A stretch of 64,000 nucleotides of DNA from contig CAVNZM010000004.1 in the NCBI GenBank assembly GCA_963693365.1, forward strand, positions 11,312,468 through 11,376,467, in the 5' to 3' direction. The position numbers and the translations under genes were made by a program. Origin of the DNA: Amoebidium appalachense. Its lineage: Eukaryota; Protista; Ichthyosporea. This document shows, in pieces, positions 457-38,703 of this stretch; the first letter of the stretch is position 1; each line of letters starts with the position of its first letter. The notes beneath the pieces were generated by a model. The model was not told where the DNA came from and made no database searches. It saw nothing but the letters and a program-made list of their open reading frames with translations.

Positions 457-20309
<19,853 letters not shown>

Positions 20310-20576
20310 GCACTGGTATATGCACCATGGAATGTGGAGCGCAGTGTGCCAGAACGGCCACACTGGGCAACGTTGACGAAGGATTATTTGTCTGTGTGCG
20401 CCTGCCTGCTCTGTGTGGTTCACGGCAAATTTTTTTTTCGTTTAAACAACTGCTGCACTTTGAAATAACCCTCAAGGAAGGACGACTGATTTATTCACAA
20501 GCTTGTTTTTCTTTTTTCAACTGACGCTCCTTTTGTTCAAAGCAATTGTGTGTTTCTCATTTAAAATCCCTCCCCT

Positions 20577-20610
<34 letters not shown>

Positions 20611-22150
20611 TGGCCCCTCGTCGTTCGTTGTGGCATCCAGGGTTTGATGGGTTGAAAGAAAGAATATTGAAGTTCATAAATATGTTTGTAATGGGTGGTA
20701 TACATACCGGGCCCCATAATGTATGACTGTAGTGCACGGCACTGTTTAAATCTGCTCTGCAGCCCCATGTACATACGATATGCCTTATATGGAAACAAGA
20801 TCCGCCTTAAAATGTTCATCTATAACAATGCCTTTTAAATGTTGTTTTGTGTATGTACGAATACAAGCGCAGTACATATTGCGTTATAGCTAAGCAAACT
20901 GGATCGCTCCTTTGCATGATCATACATTAGAACTGATGATGGGTTTCCTTAGGGTGAAAGCTGAATCAACATCTAGAGCATACTTAAACCTATAAAATAT
21001 GCACGAAACGTTGAGAACGTAATACTTCATTTTAAAGCATTCCTTGATCATGTCCAAAGAGCACCCTGCCATTTATAATGCGACTGCTGAAGATTGAATA
21101 AACCGGATTGATGCACTGATTTTGTGTACGTTATGTAGGCTGGCAGAAGCAGCTTAATATGGCAGAATGATTTTGGATGATTCAGACTCATGCTGCAGAA
21201 GACGGTCTGCAACAACTTAGTATTGTGTTGAGTAGATGCTCTTCTGATGTGGTTAGGCACCCCTTTTTTTTCGCCGAAAATTTGCGAGTACAATCGTGCC
21301 TTCTTTCAGTGGATGACTGGTGTTTCCGAATATATCATGCAAACCGATATTATTAACCGCTCCTAGTTTCCTCCGAGTCATGACTGCCTAGGTACATATT
21401 ACAAGGATGTTCCGTGACCCTTGAAAGTTCATAATTTGACCGATTATGTCTTTGCCCATTTCTCGTGTGCATGGTCGACTACATACATTGATTTCCACTG
21501 CAATCCGGAGGACGGAACAATTCAGAACAATCTATCAGATCTGATACCTACCTAAGTGCCATTCAGAGACTTGCAACATCCAAAATATTGAATTTCCGCA
21601 CAACATACATCACTCCAGAAGTATCTCCACAAGTTCATTTTTCAGAGTGTGCTGAGTTTCACTTTCAACAAGATTAGTTTTCACTTATTGTTCTAGCAAT
21701 AAGGGCTCCTTCTCATGATATTTATTATGCAGACATGCGTGGTTGAAACATAATCAATGTTTTCATAAGTGGAGACATGTTTGCAGATGTGTGCTTAGCG
21801 GATCCCACTTTTAACCCCGAATGGGCTGTACTATTTAACATATTAAGTTAGGGGGGCTTGTTCTGTTTTACTACGGGTTCGGTATTGAGATATTCCCTGT
21901 AGGATGATAACAGCATGGTGGTGCTGTGCCCGGGTTTATTTGTGGTGGGATTTTTGTATCGTGTGCACATTTAGTTTGGTGGCCACGGTGGCTGCTGTGT
22001 ATATGTTGTGGGTTGCACTCTGCTTTGTGGTGCGTGTGTCTGCATTAACGTGGGGTACAATATACGCACAAGCCCGGAAGGTGTTGGTGAGTAGGTGTAC
22101 ATGTGCAGCGCGCGCGCGCGCGCGTGTGTATGTGTGCGTGTGTGTGTGTG

Positions 22151-22206
<56 letters not shown>

Positions 22207-22523
22207 CCAGGTGTTGTGTTTGGTTCTTTCTGTGCCACAAGTACTTGTGACAGTACTGGGTGGCTGTACAGTAAAATTTGGTATCTAGCTCTTTGCTGGT
22301 CTTAAACTCGGAGGAAACCTCGGAAGCATGGCTTGGCCCTAGTAGGCAGGCCTGGGGGGATTCCGAACGAGCGAGTGTTTGGGGGGAGGGGGGGCCCGGG
22401 GCCCGGGGGGGGGGGGGGGGGAGGGGGGAGGGGGGGGGAGGGGGGGGGGAGGGGGGGGGGAGAGGGGGGCGGAGGGGGACAAAGAAGTTGATGGTCCAGG
22501 AGCGCTCCAAAACCATTTCAAGT

Positions 22524-22554
<31 letters not shown>

Positions 22555-22562
22555 TTTTTTGT

Positions 22563-22598
<36 letters not shown>

Positions 22599-23112
22599 GG
22601 GGGGGGGGGAGGCAAGCGGGGGGAGGAGGGGGGAGGGTGGCGAGGGATGAGATGGTGGGGAGAGGGGGGGAGGGGGGGGGGGGGGGGGGAGAGGAGAGGA
22701 AGGAAGGGCCACGGGAGGTTAGGCTGAGTGGGTTTAAAAATTACTTGTCACACCTCTGGTGCTGGAGCCTTATTGTAGTGTCGATCGCGAGACTGGGGGT
22801 GCGGCATGCCAGGAGCTACTACTAGAGAGAAGGCGGGAGTATGATTGGAGGGGGGGTGTTCAGCTAACCTTATATGGATAAAGCAAAGTTACAAGGATTC
22901 AAGCCATTGGTTGGGCAAGACCCCTTTTGCCGAATATGGATAACAGATCATACACTGCTGTAGGCGGCGGTCAGGAATTGGCGCGCTCTTTACTGGTCAC
23001 AACCAGTCCGGGAAGGCCATGAGCAGCATTGCCGAGCACACTGGAATACGGGAATGTTTGCGGTAACGTAGTCGCACTAGGGGGGCAGGGGGCCAGGCCC
23101 CAAGTGTTTAAA

Positions 23113-24628
23113 ATGAAGCCAGGCTGCCCTAAGGGCACAACACAGCGCCCTGGGCATAAAACAGGCGGAGCTAGGGAGGGAGCTGGGCGCAAAAAAAAAG
23201 ATGCTGCATTTGTTCAGCCTTTAGCGAACTTTGCAGGTTTTGGGACGGCAAACAAAGCTGTTTTGCAGGAACTAAACGTAAACGTACAACCCGAACAGCC
23301 CCCTCTATCTAAGGCCGCCGACATAAGGGCCCGTGTAGTTGAGGCAGGTAGCGTCCATTCGTTACCAAGAGAAATGGATCGGGCCCCTGCTCCACACCCA
23401 CCAGACATACAGGTGCAACCCGACGAGGAACCTTTGCTAAATGCAGCAGCAGATGCGTACCGGGTAGACGAGGATGAAGGGGAGGAAGAGGGAGAAGATA
23501 ATACGGACGGGGATGACGGTGGAGAGGAGTTTTCTGACGCGGCGGGCGAAACAATCAAGTCGCACCTGCACACAGTGAAAGAGAGTCTCAAAGATGAGAA
23601 GACGCCTGTGGGGTGGCATCTTCCACCTCCCATTATAGGCTTTAAATTTGGGGGCGATCCAGCGCCTTTCTACAAACCCAGATGTTTTGCCTGGCTTCCG
23701 GAAAGGTTGTCTCCCGGTTTCATGGTGCCGTGCCCCTTCGATGATCACTACGTGGACCCCCACAACCACCCCAACCCACACCGTACTTCTCGCAATGGGT
23801 TCATGAGCAACCCCGTAGGACGGCGTGTTATCGACTTTGACAGCTGCTACTACATTATCACGGCCCGGTACTTTTGTGACACATGCAAAAAAAACTTTGC
23901 CGGCACAAACCCCCAGACAATTAAACGCCTTCCACTCTTCATGCGTGATCAGTTTCCGGCCTACCTTAGCCACCGCAGTGGGCTCGACCTAAAGGTGGTA
24001 ACATTGTTGCGTGCACTGGCAGACAAAGGTGTGGGCCCAAACGCCTTTGCCACCCTCCTCTCGGAGCTCCACAAGCAGCGATACGACGAGCAGCGGCTCC
24101 TGTATTACTCGAGGGCGCTGCATTGGACCAAGTATGAACTCAAAAAGCGTAACGATTTCCGCCCCCACGACCAGCGCCTGACAGAACTTCCCCCAGAGGA
24201 GCAGGCGGCTAAGTTCTCGGCGTTTGGTGACAAAAATGGTTACGCTGGACATGTGCCTTCAGGCAAGTGTGCACTGCATTTTGGGTGTGTAAATGGTCCC
24301 CATTGTTTTGTATGCACGTGCTTGGGCATTTTTTGGGTTGGCTTGGTAGGGTTTTGTTTTATTATTTTTTATTTTTTTTTTAGGGGGGGGGGGGGGACTT
24401 GGAAATGGGTTTTGGAAGTGTGGTCAATAAGTTTCTATTATGGTGGTGGTGGATGTGTGGTGGTGGATGTGCGCCTGTGAGTGTGCGTGTACTTGTGGGT
24501 CCGTGTGTGTGTGTGTGTGTGGGTGGGGGGGGGGGGGGGGGGGGGGGAGGGGGAGGGGGGACATGGTGATGGATTAGGTGGTGGTGGTGGCAATCAGTCA
24601 TGGTGGTGGTGGTGGTGGTGGTGGTGGT

Positions 24629-24659
<31 letters not shown>

Positions 24660-24816
24660 GGGCAGAGGGATCATCAGAGGGGTGAAAGCATAACGGTCCA
24701 TGTACCAGTGAGTGTGCTTGGGAAATCGTGGAGAACTGTTATGCCTGAAATTAGATGGTGGGTGTGCGCATGTGTGTCTGTGTGTGTTGGGGGAAAGGAG
24801 GTGGAGAGGGGGGGGG

Positions 24817-24850
<34 letters not shown>

Positions 24851-25497
24851 GGGCACATGGTGGTAGACTGGATCTTGGTGGCGGTACTTAATGGTTATTA
24901 TAGTAGTGGCAGGAGGGTGTGGGGGGAAGGGCAAACGGACGTGCAGGGGACAAACTGCAGATGGGGCACAAAGGGGAAAGAAGGTGAAAGTTGGTGCAAT
25001 GACTTGGAGGGTTTGCGCGCGCCGGGAGGCGGGGGGAGGGGGGGGGGGGGGGGGGAGGGGGGGGGGGGGCAAACGGCCGGAGATGGGTGTGTAGCGTTTT
25101 TGAGATGGGAAAAGCCATACAGACTTACGAAAATACAGAGAGGTGAGATGAACACGAGGGACTAGAGGGAATGGGGGGGATGGTCCTGATGGGAGGGTGG
25201 TGGAGTTCTAACAGTACTTGGGGTTCAGGCAAATACCTGAGTGCCGTGTATACTGAGTTCAGCGACCGCACGGCAAAGTACCAGAGCCTGGACACGCAGC
25301 TCAAGCCCGTAAACAACGTGCTCAAGGCCGACCACACCTTCCAAATTGGGAAGCTCACCGGCATCAATGGGGAGCCTCTGTACCGAGGCCTATGGACTTG
25401 TGTAAACGAGCTTGGCGGTGTGTGGTCCCTCCTCTTCTCCCCCCCTCCCCCCACTCTCCCCCAGGCCCCCTCTCCCCTCCCCCCCCCCCCCACACAC

Positions 25498-25528
<31 letters not shown>

Positions 25529-25782
25529 ACACGCCCCCTCCCCCCCCTCCCCCCCCTCCCCCCTCTAGGGCCTTTAAATCTCTTAGGCTCCACATTTAAT
25601 GAGGTGGCACACTGTGAGTAGAGGTTTGTAGTATGTGGGTTTTGGGGACAATTCTTGCCCTGTCGAGCAAAAACTAGGAAGCTCCAGATATGTGTGTATG
25701 TGTTTTTGCTGGGTAGAGATTGGGGTGGGCTGGGGTGGAGCTTTCTTTTGGCGGGGAATCGGGGGGGGGGGGGGGGGGGGGG

Positions 25783-25826
<44 letters not shown>

Positions 25827-27323
25827 AGCTTCTGCCAAGCAGAATGGGAGTAGGGGCCAGTGATTGCAAGGGATGCAGGGGGGGGGGGGGGGGGGGGGGA
25901 GAGACACCACCGTCGGGGTTGAAGGTAGAGAGGGCAAGAGGCCCGGGGTGGGGTGGGGGGGGGGGGGGGGGGACAGTAGGTGCCATATGGAGGGCTGTCC
26001 CATGGTTTGGGGGGAGGGGGAGTGGGGAAGGATCGTGGGCACATGGGTTTGGGGGGAAGGCAGAGAGGGGGAAAGGATTGTGATCACAAGGGTTTAGGGG
26101 GAGGAAGGGGGAAGGATTGTAGGTACATGGGTTTAGGGGGGAGGGGGGGGGGGAAGATTTTGGGGGAAAGGGAGGCCTGGGGAAAGTATGTGGGCACATG
26201 GGTTTGGGGGGAAGGAGGGGGAAGGGTTTTGGGGGAGAGGGAGGGGAAAGTATGTGGGCACATGGGTTTGGGGGGAGGGAGGGGGAAAGGATTGTGTGGG
26301 CACTGAAGTCTCGTGAAGGGCCATGTGGTAAGGGAAGCTAGAACATGCATGGCCGCTCGGAGATGCCCTCTCACACAGTGCGGCACCCCAGAGATCCGGG
26401 CGCAGGTATTTACACGGGACTGCAGCCACCAGGAGATTGAGCCCGTGATCCAGCGCATCTCTGCCACCACGGCGGCGCTCAACAGCAAGGGCCCGGCCTT
26501 CTTCTACACAGATCGGTGCTGCCAAGACCGGGCGTTTGTTGAGCGCATGTTTCCAACCCTAGCCCGGCCAAAATGCCCCGTCCGTCTGAACGAGGCTGCG
26601 CTGGTAAGCGTGACGGACGGTCTGCCTGGGCTGGAGCTGCCGGCCAACTACCCTAAGCCGGTGTACACCGACTGCCAGGGGGCGGTGGTGGCTACAGCGG
26701 CCATTCGTGCCGACCTGGAGGGGCAGCAGCACCGCGTGGTGGGGCTGGACTGCGAGTGGGTCTATCGGGTGGGCCAGGCGCGGTCCAAGGTTTGCACGCT
26801 GCAGATTGCCACCGCACGGGCCGTGTACATCTTCCACTTGGCACGCATGGGCCCCAACCACAGCCCGCCCGCGCGGCTGGTGGACGAGCTGATTGCGCTG
26901 CTTAGGGACCCCAGCATCATCAAGGTGGGCAAGCAGATCGGCACGGACTCGGCCCACCTCAACAAGGACTACGGCACCCCTGTGGCCAGCTATCTGGAGC
27001 TGGGCCGGTTCTGCTATGCCCGTGCAGCTATCACCTCTGCGGCCCGGGGCTTGGCCGACATCACTGCCCAGGTCATAGGCAAGAAGCTGCCCAAGCCGGC
27101 ACTTGTTCGATGCTCCAACTGGCACGAGCCGCTATCAGAGGTGCAGGCCACCTACGCTGCCCTTGATGCATATGCGTCCCTGCAGGTCTACTCGGCCGTG
27201 GTCGATAGGCCAAACCTGTCAGGTGTGTATCCCACCTGCTTTTTGCCCCAGTGCTTATGTGCTTATGCCAGATATAGAAAGATTGTGGGCCCCCCAGAGG
27301 AGAGGGGGAGGGGGGGGGAGGGG

Positions 27324-27355
<32 letters not shown>

Positions 27356-27447
27356 TGGCTGACCACATGGGCCAGTGTTCCAGTTGTGTTATGCTGGGTG
27401 TCGGGTGGCTATCAAAGGAGGGGGTGATTGGTGGTGGTGGTGGTGGT

Positions 27448-27481
<34 letters not shown>

Positions 27482-28520
27482 CTATAGCACTGTTAACACG
27501 TGCAAGTGCCACACAAGCTGGGCACTGGGAGAGGGGGGGGGGGGAGGGAGAAGGGGGGGGGGGGGGGGAAGGGGGTTGCTAAGGAATATGCATTTGATTT
27601 TTGTGGAGCGAAGAGAAAAACGTTGGTGCTGTGGCTTTTTGGCTGAGTTTTTTGCTTCCCTCTATGACATGCAGCGCGGCTTCATGCAAAGGCACTCGGT
27701 GAAGGGGTTGAGATTGTGCCCCGGCGGGGCCCACATGCTGCAGCAGCCACCGGGGTGGTGCTGGCTGTGCAGCCGGAGCGCTGGGGGGGCATGAAGGTGG
27801 GCAAGAAGCATGCAGTGGTGCGGGTGGATCAGGTGCTGTCGCCGGCCATGCAGGTGCCCTTTGGCCCCGACAAGGGCAAGACCCTGGGAGAGCTGGGCCC
27901 GCCGCCCTTTGAGCTGATGGTGCACCTGCAGTGGCTACGGCCCATTCAGCCCCCACCGGACCCAGGTGCCGAGGTGCCGGTGGTCCCTGACCCAGCCCCT
28001 CCCCCTGCCAGTCCTCCCCCTGCCGAGCAGCAGCAACCCCTTGCCGGCCCACAGGCACCCCCCCAGGACCCCCAGGCAGCCCCGGGGGGCCTTGAGGCAG
28101 CCCCAGGGGGACCCGAGGCAGCTCCCAGAGAGGGCATGTTGGGCCAGGCACCGCCTGGGGAGGTGGTGTGGCAGACTGTGCTGAATGACGCCTTCCACTC
28201 CATTGCAAACACGGCGGACGGCACGTACAAGTCACACCCCCGCAGGGCTGAGTACGCACGCGCACTCAGCGAGGCAATATTTGTGTGGAATGAAGAGGAT
28301 TACGGACATGTGAAGGTGCCCCCCCCCCCCCCCCCCCCCCCCAAAATAAAAAATAAAAAATAAAAATAAAAAAAACGGCAACAACAACATGCGTGACTGA
28401 CGCGCACACACACATACACTCGTTAGCACACACTCACCATTCCACCCACAACCATGCACACCTTCGACAAAACTTCTGAGGGAAGAGAGAGAGCCTGAGC
28501 CTCAGAGAGAGGGGGGGGAA

Positions 28521-28558
<38 letters not shown>

Positions 28559-29157
28559 GGGGGGGGGGGAGGGGGGAGGAGAGTGGGGGTTATTCATATG
28601 CCTAGAGAGAAATAATGTAGGGTTGTGGGGGGAAATAGCCACATGCATTTTTTACTTGTGTTGGGGGAGAAGATGGGGGGGGTGGAGGGGAGGGGTCCTA
28701 CAATAACGGCAGGTATCAAAGTCTACCAAACCCAAATTGCAGTGTGCGTAGTAAATTAATATTGGCATCCTGCCTCACAGGGGGTGCTGGAGCAGAAGGG
28801 CATCGACATTGAAACCGAGCTCAAGGGCGGCGACCTGAGCTACTTCATGGAGCGCATCCGGCGGGTTATTCCCGACCCATACACGCTGGTCTCGCGGCTG
28901 GTGGAGTTCAAAAACACCTACAAGGATGTGCCGCCCGGACCGGATGGCAAGCCTCTGTTCAAGAAGGATGGCTTTGAAAGACTCGAGGCAACATCCCCCC
29001 CCCCCCCCCCCCCCCTCCCCTGCAGGCGCCCAACAACTCCACCACCACAGAAAAGATTCTTCGCTTATTTGTCATCCTTGGTTCATCTGCACACACACGC
29101 ACACCCTAGCCTCCCCCCCCCCCCCCCCCCCCCCCCCCCCAAACATACACACACACA

Positions 29158-29211
<54 letters not shown>

Positions 29212-29295
29212 CCCGCACGGCCCTTGCTGCCTAGCCAGTTGTTTTTTGCCTTTCCCTGCTCGTTTTTTTCCTTAGCAACCCCATCCCCCCCCCCC

Positions 29296-29326
<31 letters not shown>

Positions 29327-30998
29327 ACACACACATACACACACACTACCACCACCACCACCCACCCATCTCTCTGATGTTTGCTTGTGCCCCCACAGTC
29401 GCTGCTCGAACACGCCCAAAATGGCTGTCTGTCGGACCCCCCCGGCCTGCCCCTCTACTACGAGACCACTGCCGACGCAGATGGGCTCATGCGCTACCGC
29501 TGCATCCGGGGCACCAACGAGGTGGAGGGGGCAGTGCACAACCCCCTGGCCACCCACTTTGGGGCCACACGCATGTCGCTGCGCCTGCTGGACGCCACCA
29601 TGTCCAATAGGCGCCACCGCCACAACCTGCGTGCACACTACCGCAACCGCCTGGGCCAGGCATCGGGGCCCCCCCACTACAGCCCCTGGATTGTTGACGA
29701 CATGGAGGCACTGGCGCTGATGCTGTACGGCCATCACCTCGACCCCCAGTGGGTACCCGTAGGCTGCTACAAGCTACCGGAGGAGTACTTCAACTTTGCC
29801 CCGCTCTCCTGTGTGGCCAATGCCCCGGCGCAGGAGCCAGTTGCGGTGCCCGCACCCCCACCTCCGTCTGATAACATCGAGCCTGCAGCCAATGGCGTGA
29901 TGGGCGGGCCAGAGGACTGTGAGGTCGAGGAGGGTGACGGTGCTGCCATGGGGGGGGGGCAACCAGGTGGCGCGTGGTGCACCACAGCCGGACCCTGCAC
30001 TGAGGGGCGACTACAAGTTCCTGGCGCAGAAGCAACATGTGGCCATCCCCTTCCTTCCGGTGCTTACCCCTCAGGAGCGCAAGCTATTCAGCACGCTGCT
30101 CCTGGGCACCTACAAGGCACATGCAAAGCCCAACGGCCAGCTGTTCGAGGCTTTGGCCCAAGACTTCAACAAGGCTGCCTCTGTGGCTGGGGGAATCTAC
30201 ATGAAGGATGCGGCCTACATCAAGAAGCATTTCGACAAGTGGAAGACCTGGCAGACGGCACATGCACAGCGCTCCACACACGAGGGCCTGGCAGATCACC
30301 GCAAGCGTATGCGCGAGGAGAGGGCAGACGCTGTGCCAGCAACCATACGGCCTGCCCCCTTGCCACCCCTCCCTGTTCCAGACGGTGTCGATGCAGGGGC
30401 GCAGCGTGAGCGGCCCTTGCCCATGCTAGTGGGCAAAAAGCATCGCAACATTGGCCCTGAGGGGCCCCTGCAGATGGATTTGCCGGTGCCCCCTCCTATG
30501 CAGCCACCCCAGAGAGCCCCCAAGACCTGCAAGACGTGTGGCCGCCAGGGCAAGGGCTGCCCCGGCTCCAATCGGGCCAAGAGCTGCCCACGTTGGGTTG
30601 CAGCCAATCAGGATGCCATGCCACCAGCACCCGCGCTTGACATGCAGCAGGGCCATGTGCCGCACATGCCCCCTGCACCCCATCCAGGCCCGCACCACCC
30701 ACATGGCTGGCCCCCACCGTGGGGCATCATGCCGCCTCAGCCCGGCCCTGCCTTCCCCATGCCTGGGCTACTGCCGCAGCACGGTCCCCATCCTTACTTG
30801 GGCCATGTGGGCCAGCCCTCGGCTGGTGGGCAGTTCCCACCCCCTTCTCGTGCATCTGCTGTGCTGGGCCTGGCGTTGCCACCTGCTGGAGAGACGCAGC
30901 TGCAATGGCACGATCGAAAGCAAAGTAATCGTGGCCGCAAGTCTGCAGGCAGCCAATCAGGATCTCAGAGTAGTCAGAGTAGCCAAACTAGTGTCTAA
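23113..30998 (+). CDS. Transposase-like protein (~1,530 aa): DUF6729-like N-terminal region, DDE core with DxxH, embedded DEDDy 3'-5' exonuclease, C-terminal Cys cluster
   Basis: Exons 23113-24262, 25229-25417, 26392-27222, 27675-28315, 28781-28987, 29399-30998, with one frame change near 29950. N-terminal: GGAREGAGRKKK; RRVIDFDSCYYIITARYFCDTC...FPAYLSHRSGLD...GP..F..LLSELH (DUF6729-like). Transposase core: LKADHTF, VNELGEIR, FYTDRCCQD, VLNDAFH, YRCIRGTNEVEGAVH. Exonuclease: VGLDCEW / IKVG.QIGTD / SNW..PLS..Q..YAALDA. C-terminal: TCKTC...CPG....SC. Confidence 0.85.
26010..26305. repeat. Degenerate G-rich minisatellite (GGGAARGATTGT/GTATGT-GGGCACATGGGTTTGGGGG) in intron 2 of the transposase-like gene
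   Basis: GCACATGGGTTT(G/A)GGGG-type units recur at about 26039, 26123, 26194 and 26257. Confidence 0.75.
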
Positions 30999-31431
30999 TA
31001 TTGGAATGTACACCAATGTAACGGATCTCATATGTGTTGTAGTGCTTCAAGTTATACCTGTTCTTCGTACAGTCATGTTAGGGGGGAGGGGGGGGGGGGG
31101 GGGGGCTAGCTTTCATTCCGAAGTTTACTGTAAAGAATTAAAATTTAGAATCTGAGTAATAGTACAGAGCCTTTGCACTTTTCTCTGTTTGTTAGGAATT
31201 CTTTGTGATCGAGAGTATGGTGTGTTAGACTATTGGTGTTAATGTGTCCTGGAAGGTGTATAATGTCTGCTGGCCGTAGTCAGTATCTATTTTTAGGTAT
31301 ATAGTATATTTTTAAATGTTGGCCGCTGGCCAATAAATAGCAAATAATAAACACACGATAAAGTCAACAGCGTGCCAAAAAACTAATCCCCAGCGAGCGC
31401 ACCCAGTGATGTGTGTGTGTGTGTGTGTGTC

Positions 31432-31495
<64 letters not shown>

Positions 31496-32824
31496 CGCGC
31501 GCGCGTGCGTGCGTGTGTGTGTGTGTGTGTGCGTGCGTGCGTGCGTGTGTGCGTGTGTGCGTGTGTGCGTGTGTGCGTGTGTGTGTGTGAGTGTGTGTGT
31601 GTGTGTGTGTATGTGTGGTGTGGTGTGTGCGCGGCTTGTACATATGTACGTGTTCATGTGCACCTGTGTCGGACCTACGAAGTACATGAAAGTAAATTTT
31701 GACAGCATCGATCTGCCGGTGTGTATGTGTATGTGTGCCAGTGCAGCAGGTGTGCCTTGTAACTGATAGCTTCGCATTTTACGTGTGTGTATATATAGTA
31801 GTACGCATAGACACTTGCTGATCATTCGGATCGACATTAATATTTAATCTGTCGGTCCTCGGTTTTTTGAGTGAATGATGATCAAGTGTAAGAGCATTCA
31901 CTTGGCAAGTATTAATGTTGCAGAGGCTAGCTGCAGCTGCAAGCGTCGGATGCACACTGACAATTGTCTTTTCAGCGAGTCTAACCTGCAGGCAGCAGCT
32001 GCACACATATAGGGTTGTTATCTTGCGGCACATGCACGGTGATCATTTCAGAGTAATAGAGTTCAGAGCAATGAAAATAATGAAAATAACTAAACTTTGT
32101 GACTACTTTAAAGTTGCTGAGATCATACGTGGTGCAAGCTGCACTATGAACACATGTATAGTGCTAGTAATTAATACATTTTTGTTGCCTTCTGCAGGGT
32201 TATCGTAGCTACGTCACGGCCTGCACTCAGGGGGGGGGGAGGGGGGGGGGAGAGGGGGATGATTCGAAGGGGGTATAAATAAGAACATGCACCTAAAGGT
32301 CTTTCCCGTGGATCCTCCCCCCCCTCCCCCCCCCACCTCTCCCTCCCCCCGGGGCCCCATACTATGATATCTAGGCCCAATATTATATGCCCCTTCCCCC
32401 CCCCCCCCCCCCCTCCTCTCCGGATCCCCGGACCCCACTTCCCTACCCGGAGGCTCAAGAGCTCCCCCCTTCCCCCTCCCCCCCCTCCCCCCCCCCCCCC
32501 CCCCCAAGGCTTACGGGGGCCCTTCTTCATCGAGGGGGAGGGGGTGGGGGTGGGGGGTGGGGGGGAGGGGGTGGGGGGAGGGAAGTGGAAGGCGGGGGTG
32601 GATGCATGTCAGCCTAGGTGAATTCAATTGTTTAACTCCAGTGTGCAGGACTGGTCTGAAGGCTTAAGAAAACAACGAGGAAATGGGGTCCAGTGGAGGT
32701 GGTGGTGGTGTTCTGTGTGTGTGTGTACACGTGCACGTATGTGTGTGGTTTTTTTAAGGGGTGAGTGGTGGTGGTGGTGGTGGTGGTGGTCACCGTGGTG
32801 GTGGTGTGTGTGTCTGGTGTGTGT

Positions 32825-32872
<48 letters not shown>

Positions 32873-34162
32873 TAGAAAGAAAAACTGCTCGTGGGTCACT
32901 GTTTTTCGTCACTGTATTTGTAACGGGCCGCTCATATTTATATAACTACTTTAATTTAAGTACACGTGTTCATTATCATATACGATGGCCAAATATAGAA
33001 ATTTTGGCGTCGAAGTTCTTGGAGCTAAAAAAACGTTTAAAAGGGGGAAATAATAGCTTGGCCCCAAATTTACCTTGCCGTTTTTAGCGAATGTATTTTT
33101 TATTCATGAGTTCTAGTGATTCAGTGAGTGCACGTGCCTGCCTCAGGCTGATCATGACAACTGCAACACACCATTCCTACATGGATATCAACCAAAAGAA
33201 AATAGTATATACTGTGGTGGTCTCCTAAACCTTGTGCGGCATGCGCATACATGATATTACAGTGACGCATGTGCATATTATTGTTCTGTACACCGGAGTG
33301 TGCCGGTGCACGTGGCTGTTTTGTGCACATGTTACAATAGCAGCACGATCTCCCTAAACTCCATGTTTACACATCCCTCACCCTGGCTCTGCCTTGTCGG
33401 TGCTCCAAAACACACATACAAATCCCCCTAGACTCAGTGCCTGCACATGGTCGCATTCACGTGCAGGTCACGTGACACATGCGATGCCATACTGCCGTCT
33501 ACAGCAACAACCACGGCAGCATGTATACCGGCCCAGCACGAAATATACTTATCGGCAGCCCACTGAACTCGCCCATTTTCTCTTTTTCATGTATGTCCCT
33601 CCTTTTTTGTAAAATCACCCTTTTTGGCCTCCCGGTAGTGGATTTTGCAGGATTTGACTTCTTTGAGGTCCAAAAACCTCAAATTTTCCCCGGCGGGGCC
33701 GGGGAGGGAGAATTCAAAAATTGCCCGCTCCTGATATGGTACCCGGGCCGCGAGACTCAATTTGCAACTGACCAGCCTTCAGCTCATGAGCCAGTTCGTG
33801 AGCCTAGCCTATACAGCGTATGCTCACTCCAAATGAATATTCAATATAGTGCGGGCTTGCAAACACCATTAATGACGTCACGCACGGAAGACTACACAGT
33901 CGAGTTCCGCGGCTTAGAGGCTCTGAGCCTCTGAGGTGTTTCTAGATGGCCGTGCCTCTGACCTGCTCCCTTTCCAACGTTGACTCTTTCCAACCATAGA
34001 CGCGGCATGCACCCGACCCTAACCCTCTCCTTTCTGCGTGGGCTCTGCCTTGTTGTACCTCTGTGCCAAGCTTCTACATGCCCCTCTCTCCTCCCGCTTT
34101 TTGGTCTACACACAGTGACATACAACCAACCATCACTCGAGCACAGGCACATGCACACCAAC

Positions 34163-34552
34163 ATGGCGTTTGTCACACACGCGGGTGTGTCCATGCCGAG
34201 GTTGGTCTACGGCACCGCCTGGAAGAAAGAGCGCACTACACAACTCGTGCTACAGGTGGGCAAGATTGCGGAAGGGCTTTTGTTTGCGAAGATTTTTTTG
34301 GGGTTGTGACGTGTGCGTATGGGCTTGTCTCGGGCATTGCTACAAGTCAAGTTGATGAAAAAAAGGGATTTTTTTTTTTCTCGGCAAGGATTTTGGTCTC
34401 CTGCTTCTCTTCACAGTCTCAACTGCTCCATTAACGCCCCTTTTTTGCCATGGAAAGAACAAGCCACAAGAATAGAGCCCGTAGTTGACCTCTTTTCCTC
34501 TCTCTCTCTCTCTCCCCCCCCCGCTCCCCCTCCCCCCCCCCAATCCCTCCTC

Positions 34553-34589
<37 letters not shown>

Positions 34590-35421
34590 CCCTCCCTCTC
34601 TCCTCTACCCTCTTGTCCTTTAATCATAACGCTTCGCTTGTTTACAGGCTCTGGAGGCTGGATTTCGAGGCATCGACACGGCCTGCCAACCCAAACACTA
34701 TCGTGAGGATCTAGTAGGGGAGGCGCTGGCACAGATTCTTTCACCTACTGGCCCACTCAAGCGCGAAGAGGTGTTTGTGCAGACGAAGTACACACCGATA
34801 GGCGGTCAGGACACAACACAGCGTGCAGGCCCCCTTCCCTACGACCCAAACGCCCCTCTTGCCCAGCAAGTCGAGCAATCCGTGCAGACATCCCTTCGCA
34901 ATTTACACGTTACATACATAGACTCCCTTGTGCTTCATTCGCCCCTCCCCACACACGCACAGACTATGACGGCATGGCGTGCAATGGAGCAGGCACACGC
35001 AAACGGACACGTACGGCAACTGGGAATTAGCAACATATTCGACTCCCAGGCACTGGTTAAGCTGTGGAATGATGCAACGATTAAGCCGGCGATTGTTCAG
35101 AACAGGTTCTATCAAGAAAGTGGCTACGACACAGAAATCCGTGCGTTTTGCGCAAAAAACGTCATCGCGTACCAATCCTTCTGGACACTCACAGCAAACC
35201 CCCACCTGCTCGAGTCTAAACTGATAGGGCAGGTGGCAAAGAGGGCAGGAAAAACACGCGCACAGACGTTGTTCCGGTTTCTGATGGAAATGGGTGTGGT
35301 TCCTTTGACAGGGACGACCAGCACGGAGCACATGAAGCAAGATCTGGAGGTGGTTGGATGGGTGGACGGACCAACACAGGCAGAGGTGACTGAGTTTAGG
35401 GCACTTGTAGGCGAGGTTTAG
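34163..35421 (+). CDS. Aldo-keto reductase family protein (2 exons)
   Basis: Exon 34163-34255 (MPRLVYGTAWK) joined by a GT-AG intron to 34648-35421 (ALEAGFRGIDTACQPKHY...EVFVQTK...YIDSLVLHSP...LGISN...VQNRF). The catalytic D/Y/K/H tetrad is present. In-frame upstream ATGs at 34007 and 34151 could extend the N-terminus. Confidence 0.93.
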
Positions 35422-35760
35422 GTAGATGAAATAAAACGGTTGGTTTCTGCTTAACATTCTATCAGCATAATATACAGTAGTCGTTTACTTTTGGGGTGCA
35501 AAATAAAATTGTTCGTTCCTGTTTCATAGTCGTTTGTTGTTGGGGTGCTCTAGTGGAAGAGTTTTTAAGTCTGGGCCGGGTGTATGGTTGGTTGCCCCAT
35601 TCCCCCTCCGCACAGTTAGTCATTTAGTTAGGTTGTACGTGTGTGTGGTTGTGGTTTGTCAAGAGATCACGGCAGGGGACGTTTTGAAAAAAAGGAATAT
35701 AATTCGTATGAATTATTCGATGTGCACACGTTCAAACAGAGACGGTCACATGGCCGCCCC

Positions 35761-35828: not shown

Positions 35829-35901
35829 TGGAGGTGCGGGGTATCGATCCCCGTGCCTCTCGCATGCTAAGCGAGCGCTCTACCATCTGAGCTACACCCC
35901 C
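35829..35901 (-). tRNA. tRNA-Ala (anticodon AGC)
   Basis: Reverse complement GGGGGTGTAGCTCAGATGGTAGAGCGCTCGCTTAGCATGCGAGAGGCACGGGGATCGATACCCCGCACCTCCA folds as a cloverleaf with a G3:U70 pair and AGC anticodon. Confidence 0.97.
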
Positions 35902-38065: not shown

Positions 38066-38703
38066 AGGGCCCAACCATATCGGCAGAGTCAGCTTGCAAA
38101 AAGCAGAATTGTTCTGCAAAGGCAGAATTATTCTGCAAAAAAGCAAAATTATTCTGCAAAAAGTGGAATTTATTCTGCAAAAGCAGAATCACTCTCCTCT
38201 TAGCAGAATCATTCTGCTTTTAGCAGAATTATTCCGCAAACACAGAATCACCCTGCTTTTAGCAGAATTATTTCGCTAAAAGCAGAGTTATTCCGCAAAA
38301 AGCAGAATTGTTCTGCTTTCGACAGCAGAATAATTCTGCTCTTAACAAAAAGAAAGTCATTCTGCTTTTAGCGGAATAATTAATCCAAAAGGCAGAATTA
38401 TTCTGCTTTCGACAGCAGTATAATCTGCCTTTAGCAGAATAAATTTACTTTTAGTGGAATGGTTATTTCCAAAAAGCAGAATTATTCTGCTTTTAGCGGA
38501 ATTATTCTGCGAAAAGCAGATTAATACGGTTTTCAGAATAATGGTTCTGCTTTTAGTAATCGATTCTGCTTTTGCAGAATAGTTCTGCTTTTGCTGAAAA
38601 ATTCTGCTTTTAGCAGATGATTCTGCTTTTTACAGAATAATTCTGCTTTTTGCAGCATAATTCTGGTCGGAGCAAGTTGACTCAGCCGATGTGGTTGGGC
38701 CCT
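38066..38703. mobile_element. Non-autonomous fold-back DNA element (MITE), 638 bp, ~32-bp TIRs, 6-bp TSD TGATCC
   Basis: Left end AGGGCCCAACCATATCGGCAGAGTCAGCTTGC; reverse complement of right end AGGGCCCAACCACATCGGCTGAGTCAACTTGC. TGATCC at 38060-38065 and 38704-38709. The interior is an array of GCAGAATWATTCTGC palindromes. Confidence 0.9.

Follow-up and report, generated by a model that had tools for sequence, protein, structure and literature searches.

In the Dada group of transposons, a DEDDy exonuclease located between the second catalytic aspartate (D2) and the DxxH motif of the transposase has been described for Dada-1_LB, Dada-2_LB and Dada-1_ES, with the DEDD residues intact in all three (Kojima and Jurka, 2013; PMC3706591). 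That paper places these exonuclease-bearing families of Laccaria (bicolor) and Ectocarpus within Dada, and proposes 3'-end processing as the role of the exonuclease. The layout appears again for Dada-1_Ec32 in a later supplement, the available part of which lists the element as incomplete and its target site duplication as '?' (PMC12477816). As far as the accessible parts of the sources go, 6-7-bp duplications and RNA-gene targets are given for 'many' Dada families (PMC8869645), and Dada is recorded in four fungal phyla (PMC5751038). Here, we describe a transposon of this design in the ichthyosporean Amoebidium appalachense. It occupies 22795-33749 (+; 10,955 bp, ends GG...CC) of a 64,000-nucleotide stretch of DNA, hereafter the window (NCBI GenBank assembly GCA_963693365.1, contig CAVNZM010000004.1, positions 11,312,468 to 11,376,467 of the forward strand).

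A transcript protein, a homolog alignment and a fold match agree with the initial annotation that one polypeptide combines a Mutator/hAT/P/Kolobok-type D-D-DxxH-E core with an intact WRN-type DEDDy exonuclease. By family assignment alone, the element very probably belongs to the exonuclease-bearing Dada families. The fuller reading that we favour, with moderate confidence, is of a transcribed, many-copy and likely recently active Dada transposon, in which the DDE site cuts and joins while the exonuclease trims 3' DNA ends.

Gene structure and transcript support

The gene lies on the + strand and has six exons with consistent intron phases. Exon 1 (23113-24262) encodes an acidic low-complexity N terminus, DUF6729 (Pfam, residues 155-342, E 2.7e-17) and the putative zinc-finger ligands C207/H212/C255/C258, and exon 2 (25229-25417) carries RNase H strands 1-2, the first catalytic aspartate D1 (D418, codon 25330) and an NExG motif. 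Exon 3 (26392-27222) holds D2 (D487, codon 26511) and the exonuclease (DNA_pol_A_exo1, PF01612, residues 557-715, E 5.9e-14), with D566 and E568 at 26748 and 26754, D632 at 26946, and Y701 and D705 at 27153 and 27165. Exon 4 (27675-28315) covers a predicted SH3-like beta-barrel, a Pro-rich linker and DxxH (D895-x2-H898, 28187-28198), exon 5 (28781-28987) the helical insertion region following DxxH, and exon 6 (29399-30998) the catalytic glutamate E1049 (29525, RGTNxxE), a helical domain, a C-x2-C-x6-C-x8-C knuckle (residues 1383-1402, from 30528) and the stop. All nine catalytic or motif positions assigned in the initial annotation were recovered at their codons, and of the Pfam families named there, DUF6729 and DNA_pol_A_exo1 were found in the transcript protein P0009. 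GC-AG borders occur at introns 1 and 5 (donors 24263 and 28988), two of the five introns. Poly-G/poly-C and CA tracts are common to the transposon introns and nearby host introns.

All five splice junctions are supported by transcript proteins. Searching with exon 3 retrieved a EukProt protein that is 100% identical and bears a Trinity-style name, and the matching EukProt cluster (n = 18 proteins, 15 listed) is labelled Amoebidium parasiticum. P0009, a transcriptome protein of 1538 aa from Amoebidium parasiticum, agrees with the six-exon model in 1538 of the 1539 columns, the exception being the placeholder for a G10 run close to 29950. Because P0009 equals the model at every residue, the exonuclease exon is spliced in, and the doubt expressed beforehand, that exon 26392-27222 might not be joined to its neighbours, is removed. 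The P0006 isoform has an additional 5-residue deletion relative to P0009, and other transcript isoforms of the gene retain introns.

Contigs of four sequencing runs (X9, X11, X14 and X16) were placed on 20000-35600. Of the four runs, only X9 contains joints that skip introns 1 and 3, the other three being DNA-like; X9 was called RNA-like by guess, and the evidence for expression comes mainly from the EukProt proteins. At the G10 run, the transcript is shorter than the window by one G. This extra G is absent from all X9 depth, 8425/13722 of the X11 depth and all X14 depth (three of the four runs), and since contigs of these three runs lack it, the family is in frame; for the window copy, this leaves either a frameshift downstream of the catalytic core or an assembly error. 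In the Pro-rich linker, at about 27995-28015, transcript isoforms show a 15-bp (5-residue) length variant, and 15-base gaps over exon 4 occur in X14 and X16 contigs too.

Domains and conservation

A library search returned 3819 clusters at E<=0.001. Judging from the 1211 homolog clusters at E<=1e-10 and from the Pfam E-values, the gene and its exonuclease feature are not due to chance. The homolog set comprises 152 proteins from a search listing the best 150 of the 3819 clusters, and its named members are fungal and aphelid hypothetical proteins. Ninety of the 152 align at all nine key sites; within these 90, DDE and DxxH are kept in 78, DEDD in 79 and both in 70, and the order D1, D2, exonuclease, DxxH, E holds in 89. 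Counted over the homologs aligned at each site, D1 is kept in 99/102, D2 in 120/121, the D and H of DxxH in 140/143 and 139/143, and E in 143/148. The top-scoring homolog, P0019 of Podochytrium (3352 aa), is more than twice as long, matches in six stretches and possibly consists of fused or tandem copies.

In the N-terminal zinc finger, C207, C255 and C258 are conserved in 47/60, 73/76 and 65/76 homologs, respectively, and the second ligand is probably H212 here and C in many homologs. The C-terminal knuckle takes the place and final spacing of the published CCHC motif with Cys replacing His, and the all-Cys form is the commonest among the 41 homologs with this knuckle. The MULE domain PF10551 gave no match in P0009 at E<=0.01 and matched one of 36 homologs at E 0.077. 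MuDR/Mutator (MULE) membership was rejected, as there is no PF10551 and there are no long terminal inverted repeats. Pfam includes KDZ transposase and CxC models. A Kyakuja-Dileera-Zisupton (KDZ) assignment was also rejected, with no KDZ family among the 16 Pfam families matched by the 36 proteins at E<=0.1.

Predicted fold

An AlphaFold model of P0001 (36 sequences aligned, mean pLDDT 71.7, pTM 0.62; core pLDDT mostly above 85) places D1 on the first strand and D2 right after the fourth, followed by the exonuclease, the beta-barrel and a disordered linker; beyond the linker come a strand that terminates in DxxH, a helical region and the E-bearing helix. In a fold comparison against 48,161 chains, of which the best 50 matches are listed, the best match was the mouse WRN exonuclease (Z 27.5, rmsd 1.7, 184 residues, 32% identity), and RNase D, Nibbler and EXD2 scored Z 20.2, 19.7 and 14.3. 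The only transposase among the best 50 was ISCth4 (6xg8; Z 13.8, rmsd 4.0, 249 residues), and because this match spans model residues 9-723, the two parts of the core, separated by the insert, are predicted to come together as a single IS256/Mutator-type unit. From the same match, the transposase is predicted to act in a Mutator-like manner. Foldseek with the whole model gave exonucleases only among the matches listed.

The model is thus consistent, at fold level, with the initial proposal of an exonuclease inserted into a single core, here one resembling ISCth4; the proposed site of insertion has to be corrected. The gap from D2 to DxxH is 408 residues, and since the insert of ~390 aa precedes DxxH and the helical region follows it, the exonuclease sits before the canonical RNase H insertion domain rather than within it. 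In ISCth4, according to the available part of the report, the helical insertion domain covers residues 261-325 and starts at CxxH (262-265; PMC7780238).

The barrel after the exonuclease (about 27677-27961, 95 residues, pLDDT 91.5) is present in 33 of the 36 aligned proteins, and two of the three homologs missing it are from Amoeboaphelidium. It resembles KOW/Tudor/SH3-type folds at Z 5-6.7, which indicates fold class only, and gave no significant sequence match and no Foldseek match at E<=0.001. The barrel is unmentioned in the 2013 Dada text (PMC3706591), and the word searches of Dada papers were not aimed at it.

Element ends, target site and copy depth

The element extends beyond the gene, to 22795 and 33749. 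These ends are set by X11 joints and a step in X11 depth, and the same ends recur in X14 contigs. The 8-bp direct repeat GCGAGACT abuts both of them (22787-22794 and 33750-33757, +) and occurs only twice in the window, both strands included; the chance of such a repeat at two fixed positions is ~2e-5. Placing the right end one base earlier extends the duplication to 9 bp. No terminal inverted repeat beyond GG...CC was found at the element ends, so that, of the two hallmarks for which the flanks were to be aligned, the duplication is present and the inverted repeat is not. The 7-bp sub-terminal inverted motif CAGGAGC (offsets 16/17) is the only inverted match in the terminal 66 bp and, being only 7 bp long, has a putative role in end binding.

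Single-contig depth in X11 is 2811-4556 inside the element and 29-38 on the flanks, a rough measure that puts the copy number at ~75-125 times single-copy depth; summed depths were not used for this estimate. The coding part has few listed variant sites, pointing to young copies as far as contigs, which drop rare variants, can tell. There is no second copy of either element end within the window, and the right-end pattern had no match in metagenome contigs. The 3' non-coding arm (31000-33749) shows repeated depth and is without a credible open reading frame. Within it, X11 summed depth is high near the right end, possibly reflecting non-autonomous derivatives, and RNA-like contigs cover 32896-33445.

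At least three joints in the DNA run X11 connect the right end (33749/33750) to the left, at 22795 in two cases and 22811 in one, across spacers of 9, 23 and 29 letters and at depths of 37-66, about that of a single locus. They come from the best 12 of 109 rows for one run, in whose short-read contigs circles are not resolvable. The joints are most simply interpreted as chromosomal tandems of the kind published for Dada, for example Dada-U1 (PMC3706591).

The left neighbour comprises the 3' exons of a carboxyl-transferase gene at about 14000-20310 (+), probably acetyl-CoA carboxylase. The right neighbour is an aldo/keto reductase gene at about 34163-35422 (+) starting ~410 bp from the right end, and the insertion may sit in its promoter region. 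No tRNA, snRNA or 5S fragments were found on either flank (Rfam) or in the rejoined empty site (ARAGORN); at E<=10, Rfam gave, besides a tRNA-Ala, only sub-threshold matches, mostly in poly-G/C tracts. The tRNA-Ala(AGC) at 35829-35901 (-) was considered as a Dada-tA-type target and rejected, as it is intact and 2 kb beyond the right end. From this one site, the Amoebidium family is likely to be less target-specific than the fish Dada families. Farther right, 38090-38500 is a degenerate tandem repeat of AAAAGCAGAAT-like units.

Comparison with Dada and other systems

With Dada-1_LB, Dada-2_LB and Dada-1_ES/Dada-1_Ec32, the only Dada families (Laccaria and Ectocarpus) for which an exonuclease is reported, the element shares the DDE and DxxH core, the DEDDy/WRN-like exonuclease, introns, and probable zinc-finger motifs at both ends of the protein. 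Unlike Dada-1_LB, Dada-2_LB and Dada-1_ES, for which the 2013 text gives neither ends nor target, it has an ichthyosporean host and a defined pair of ends and duplication, and its ~100-fold depth compares with 15 copies listed for Ectocarpus. The homolog P0085 resembles the printed Dada-1_LB exonuclease (PMC3706591, Fig. S1) along its length, with long shared runs by eye, and matches P0009 over residues 183-1092 (E 5e-79, 255/970 columns). Among the 152 homologs, the ExoI motif takes the Dada-1_LB form in one, the Dada-2_LB form in two and the Dada-1_ES form in none. A literature search for 'DUF6729' found no paper, and the name 'Dada' was not found in the main text of the Amoebidium genome paper.

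The target-specific Dada families (Dada-U6, -U1, -tA, -tL, 5S and others) resemble the Amoebidium element in their lack of terminal inverted repeats, a sub-terminal inverted motif, tandems, a GCG-starting duplication and a length within 4.7-11 kb. Their duplications of 6-7 bp lie inside small-RNA genes, whereas the Amoebidium copy has 8 bp and lies between two protein genes. Because this site shows neither an RNA-gene insertion nor a 6-7-bp duplication, the element is filed apart from these families. Apparent 8-bp repeats were seen, and not excluded, by the authors who defined Dada (PMC3706591).

Outside Dada, the element shares with ISCth4 (IS256/Mutator, PDB 6xg8, PMC7780238) the RNase H core, the helical insertion led by C/DxxH and the 8-bp duplication. 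As described in the available part of that report, ISCth4 differs in being bacterial, about 400 aa long, and equipped with real terminal inverted repeats, 21 residues from D2 to CxxH (408 here) and no exonuclease; its CxxH-bearing insertion domain encloses spacer DNA. WRN exonuclease (2e6l, 2fbt), EXD2 and MUT-7/Nibbler have the same DEDDy fold and residues, which here are found in a transposase and without a helicase. KolobokD, in the portion of its description available (PMC9587614), is also a C/DxxH-type transposon with a 3'-5' exonuclease, a DnaQ-like one proposed to degrade DNA intermediates, but this is of the DEDDh type, and the element belongs to the Kolobok superfamily with a TTAA 4-bp duplication.

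Proposed mechanism and alternatives

In the mechanism that we favour, D1 and D2 (exons 2-3) and the region from DxxH to E (exons 4-6) would come together as a single RNase H core, from which the exonuclease and the SH3-like barrel protrude as a loop between D2 and DxxH. The zinc-finger/DUF6729 region and the short sub-terminal motif may bind the element ends, and the transposase would nick 3' ends and insert with an 8-bp stagger, as Mutator/IS256-type enzymes do. Strand transfer requires the 3'-OH of the element itself to be preserved, so the exonuclease would probably trim the 3' end of the flanking donor DNA, or else an overhang that derives from the flank and is left at the element end.

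Several points weigh against this reading. The convergence of D1, D2 and E is predicted at fold level and not as measured residue geometry, the window copy has an apparent 1-base frameshift downstream of the catalytic core, and contig depth gives no more than a rough idea of copy number. Because the query contained the exonuclease, the homolog counts are skewed toward it. The link to Dada is an indirect one, through the homolog P0085 and an exonuclease figure. Both zinc fingers are C/H-swapped relative to the published Dada motifs (CCCC N-terminal, CCHC C-terminal), and the duplication is 8 bp, against the 6-7 bp published. No published test of the Dada exonuclease was found, Repbase Reports and subscription journals lying outside the search.

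The end joints raise the question of whether the element moves by IS256-like copy-out/paste-in, or inserts beside its own ends, the exonuclease trimming the right-end/spacer/left-end junction or a flap. Besides the three or more X11 joints, this is favoured by ISCth4, the nearest solved transposase, which makes 6-8-bp spacer junctions along with its 8-bp duplications (PMC7780238), and by published Dada oddities, at least as the available portions of those texts give them: carried-along flank sequence, one-ended events and tandems. We nevertheless judge it rather improbable. The joint depths are near that of a single locus and fit ordinary chromosomal tandems, tandem Dada copies are already on record, and two spacers out of three exceed those of ISCth4 in length, in one run whose short-read contigs cannot show circles. 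A narrower version, in which exonuclease-bearing Dada form a non-target-specific branch that uses an IS256-like end-to-end junction and trims the flank-derived spacer or flap, we hold to be quite doubtful. An unlikely alternative of another kind is that the exonuclease degrades RNA (small RNAs or RNA-DNA hybrids) as an anti-silencing or clean-up enzyme dispensable for cutting and joining. RNase D, Nibbler/MUT-7 and EXD2 share its DEDDy fold at the scores given above, and the neighbouring barrel is similar to KOW/Tudor folds, a class in which binding to RNA or to RNA-associated proteins is common. Transposon methylation occurs in Amoebidium, according to the part of PMC11244446 available. However, WRN stands out clearly as the closest match in both fold and sequence, the exonuclease lies inside the catalytic core rather than terminally in 89 of the 90 full homologs, and the matches of the barrel, weak at Z 6.7 or less, say nothing about function. 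For the degradation of small RNAs, which the initial annotation had suggested, no support was found, the nearest fold being a DNA exonuclease.

The remaining alternatives concern the identity of the element. A domesticated host gene of transposase origin would suit the introns, high transcript depth and full-length transcripts of this gene, and a domesticated Dada is known in fish (PMC8869645, in the portion available), but the ~75-125-fold depth, sharp ends, target duplication, intact DDE and few coding variants largely refute this idea and leave it barely credible. We also strongly doubt that the elements with an exonuclease form a separate Mutator-like lineage, grouped only loosely with the Dada families that target RNA genes, although the 8-bp duplication, the lack of an RNA-gene target here, the variant zinc fingers and the weak MULE match in one of 36 homologs (E 0.077) would all suit it. 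The defining paper puts such families in Dada (PMC3706591), the D1-D2 spacing of 69 compares with 68 in Dada-U6_DR, and the GCG-starting duplication and the sub-terminal inverted motif are like those of Dada-U6/U1; the DxxH-E region, moreover, matched a mostly-chordate Atlas cluster at 0.95, which is a lead only.

Implications

The fusion of a transposase with an exonuclease is not new. The initial annotation took it for an uncharacterised system with no functional description, a view that gives way to the 2013 paper, where both the layout and a 3'-end role are set out (PMC3706591), and to the available part of the supplement that shows the layout again (PMC12477816). What is new is the ichthyosporean host, the defined ends, the 8-bp duplication outside a small-RNA gene, the conserved SH3-like barrel and the end joints with short spacers. 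The published exonuclease-bearing Dada families that were checked are without defined ends, and Amoebidium has public genome and RNA data. A family with ends, a duplication, a transcript-supported protein and apparently many young copies is therefore well suited to testing the role of the exonuclease.

To our knowledge, no eukaryotic DDE element has yet been shown to use IS256-like copy-out/paste-in. If that route were true of this family, with its ~100 near-identical transcribed copies and short-spacer end joints, it would be the first. For Dada as a whole, the Amoebidium element suggests that the targeting of small-RNA genes is not general to the group, which bears on the origin of that specificity.

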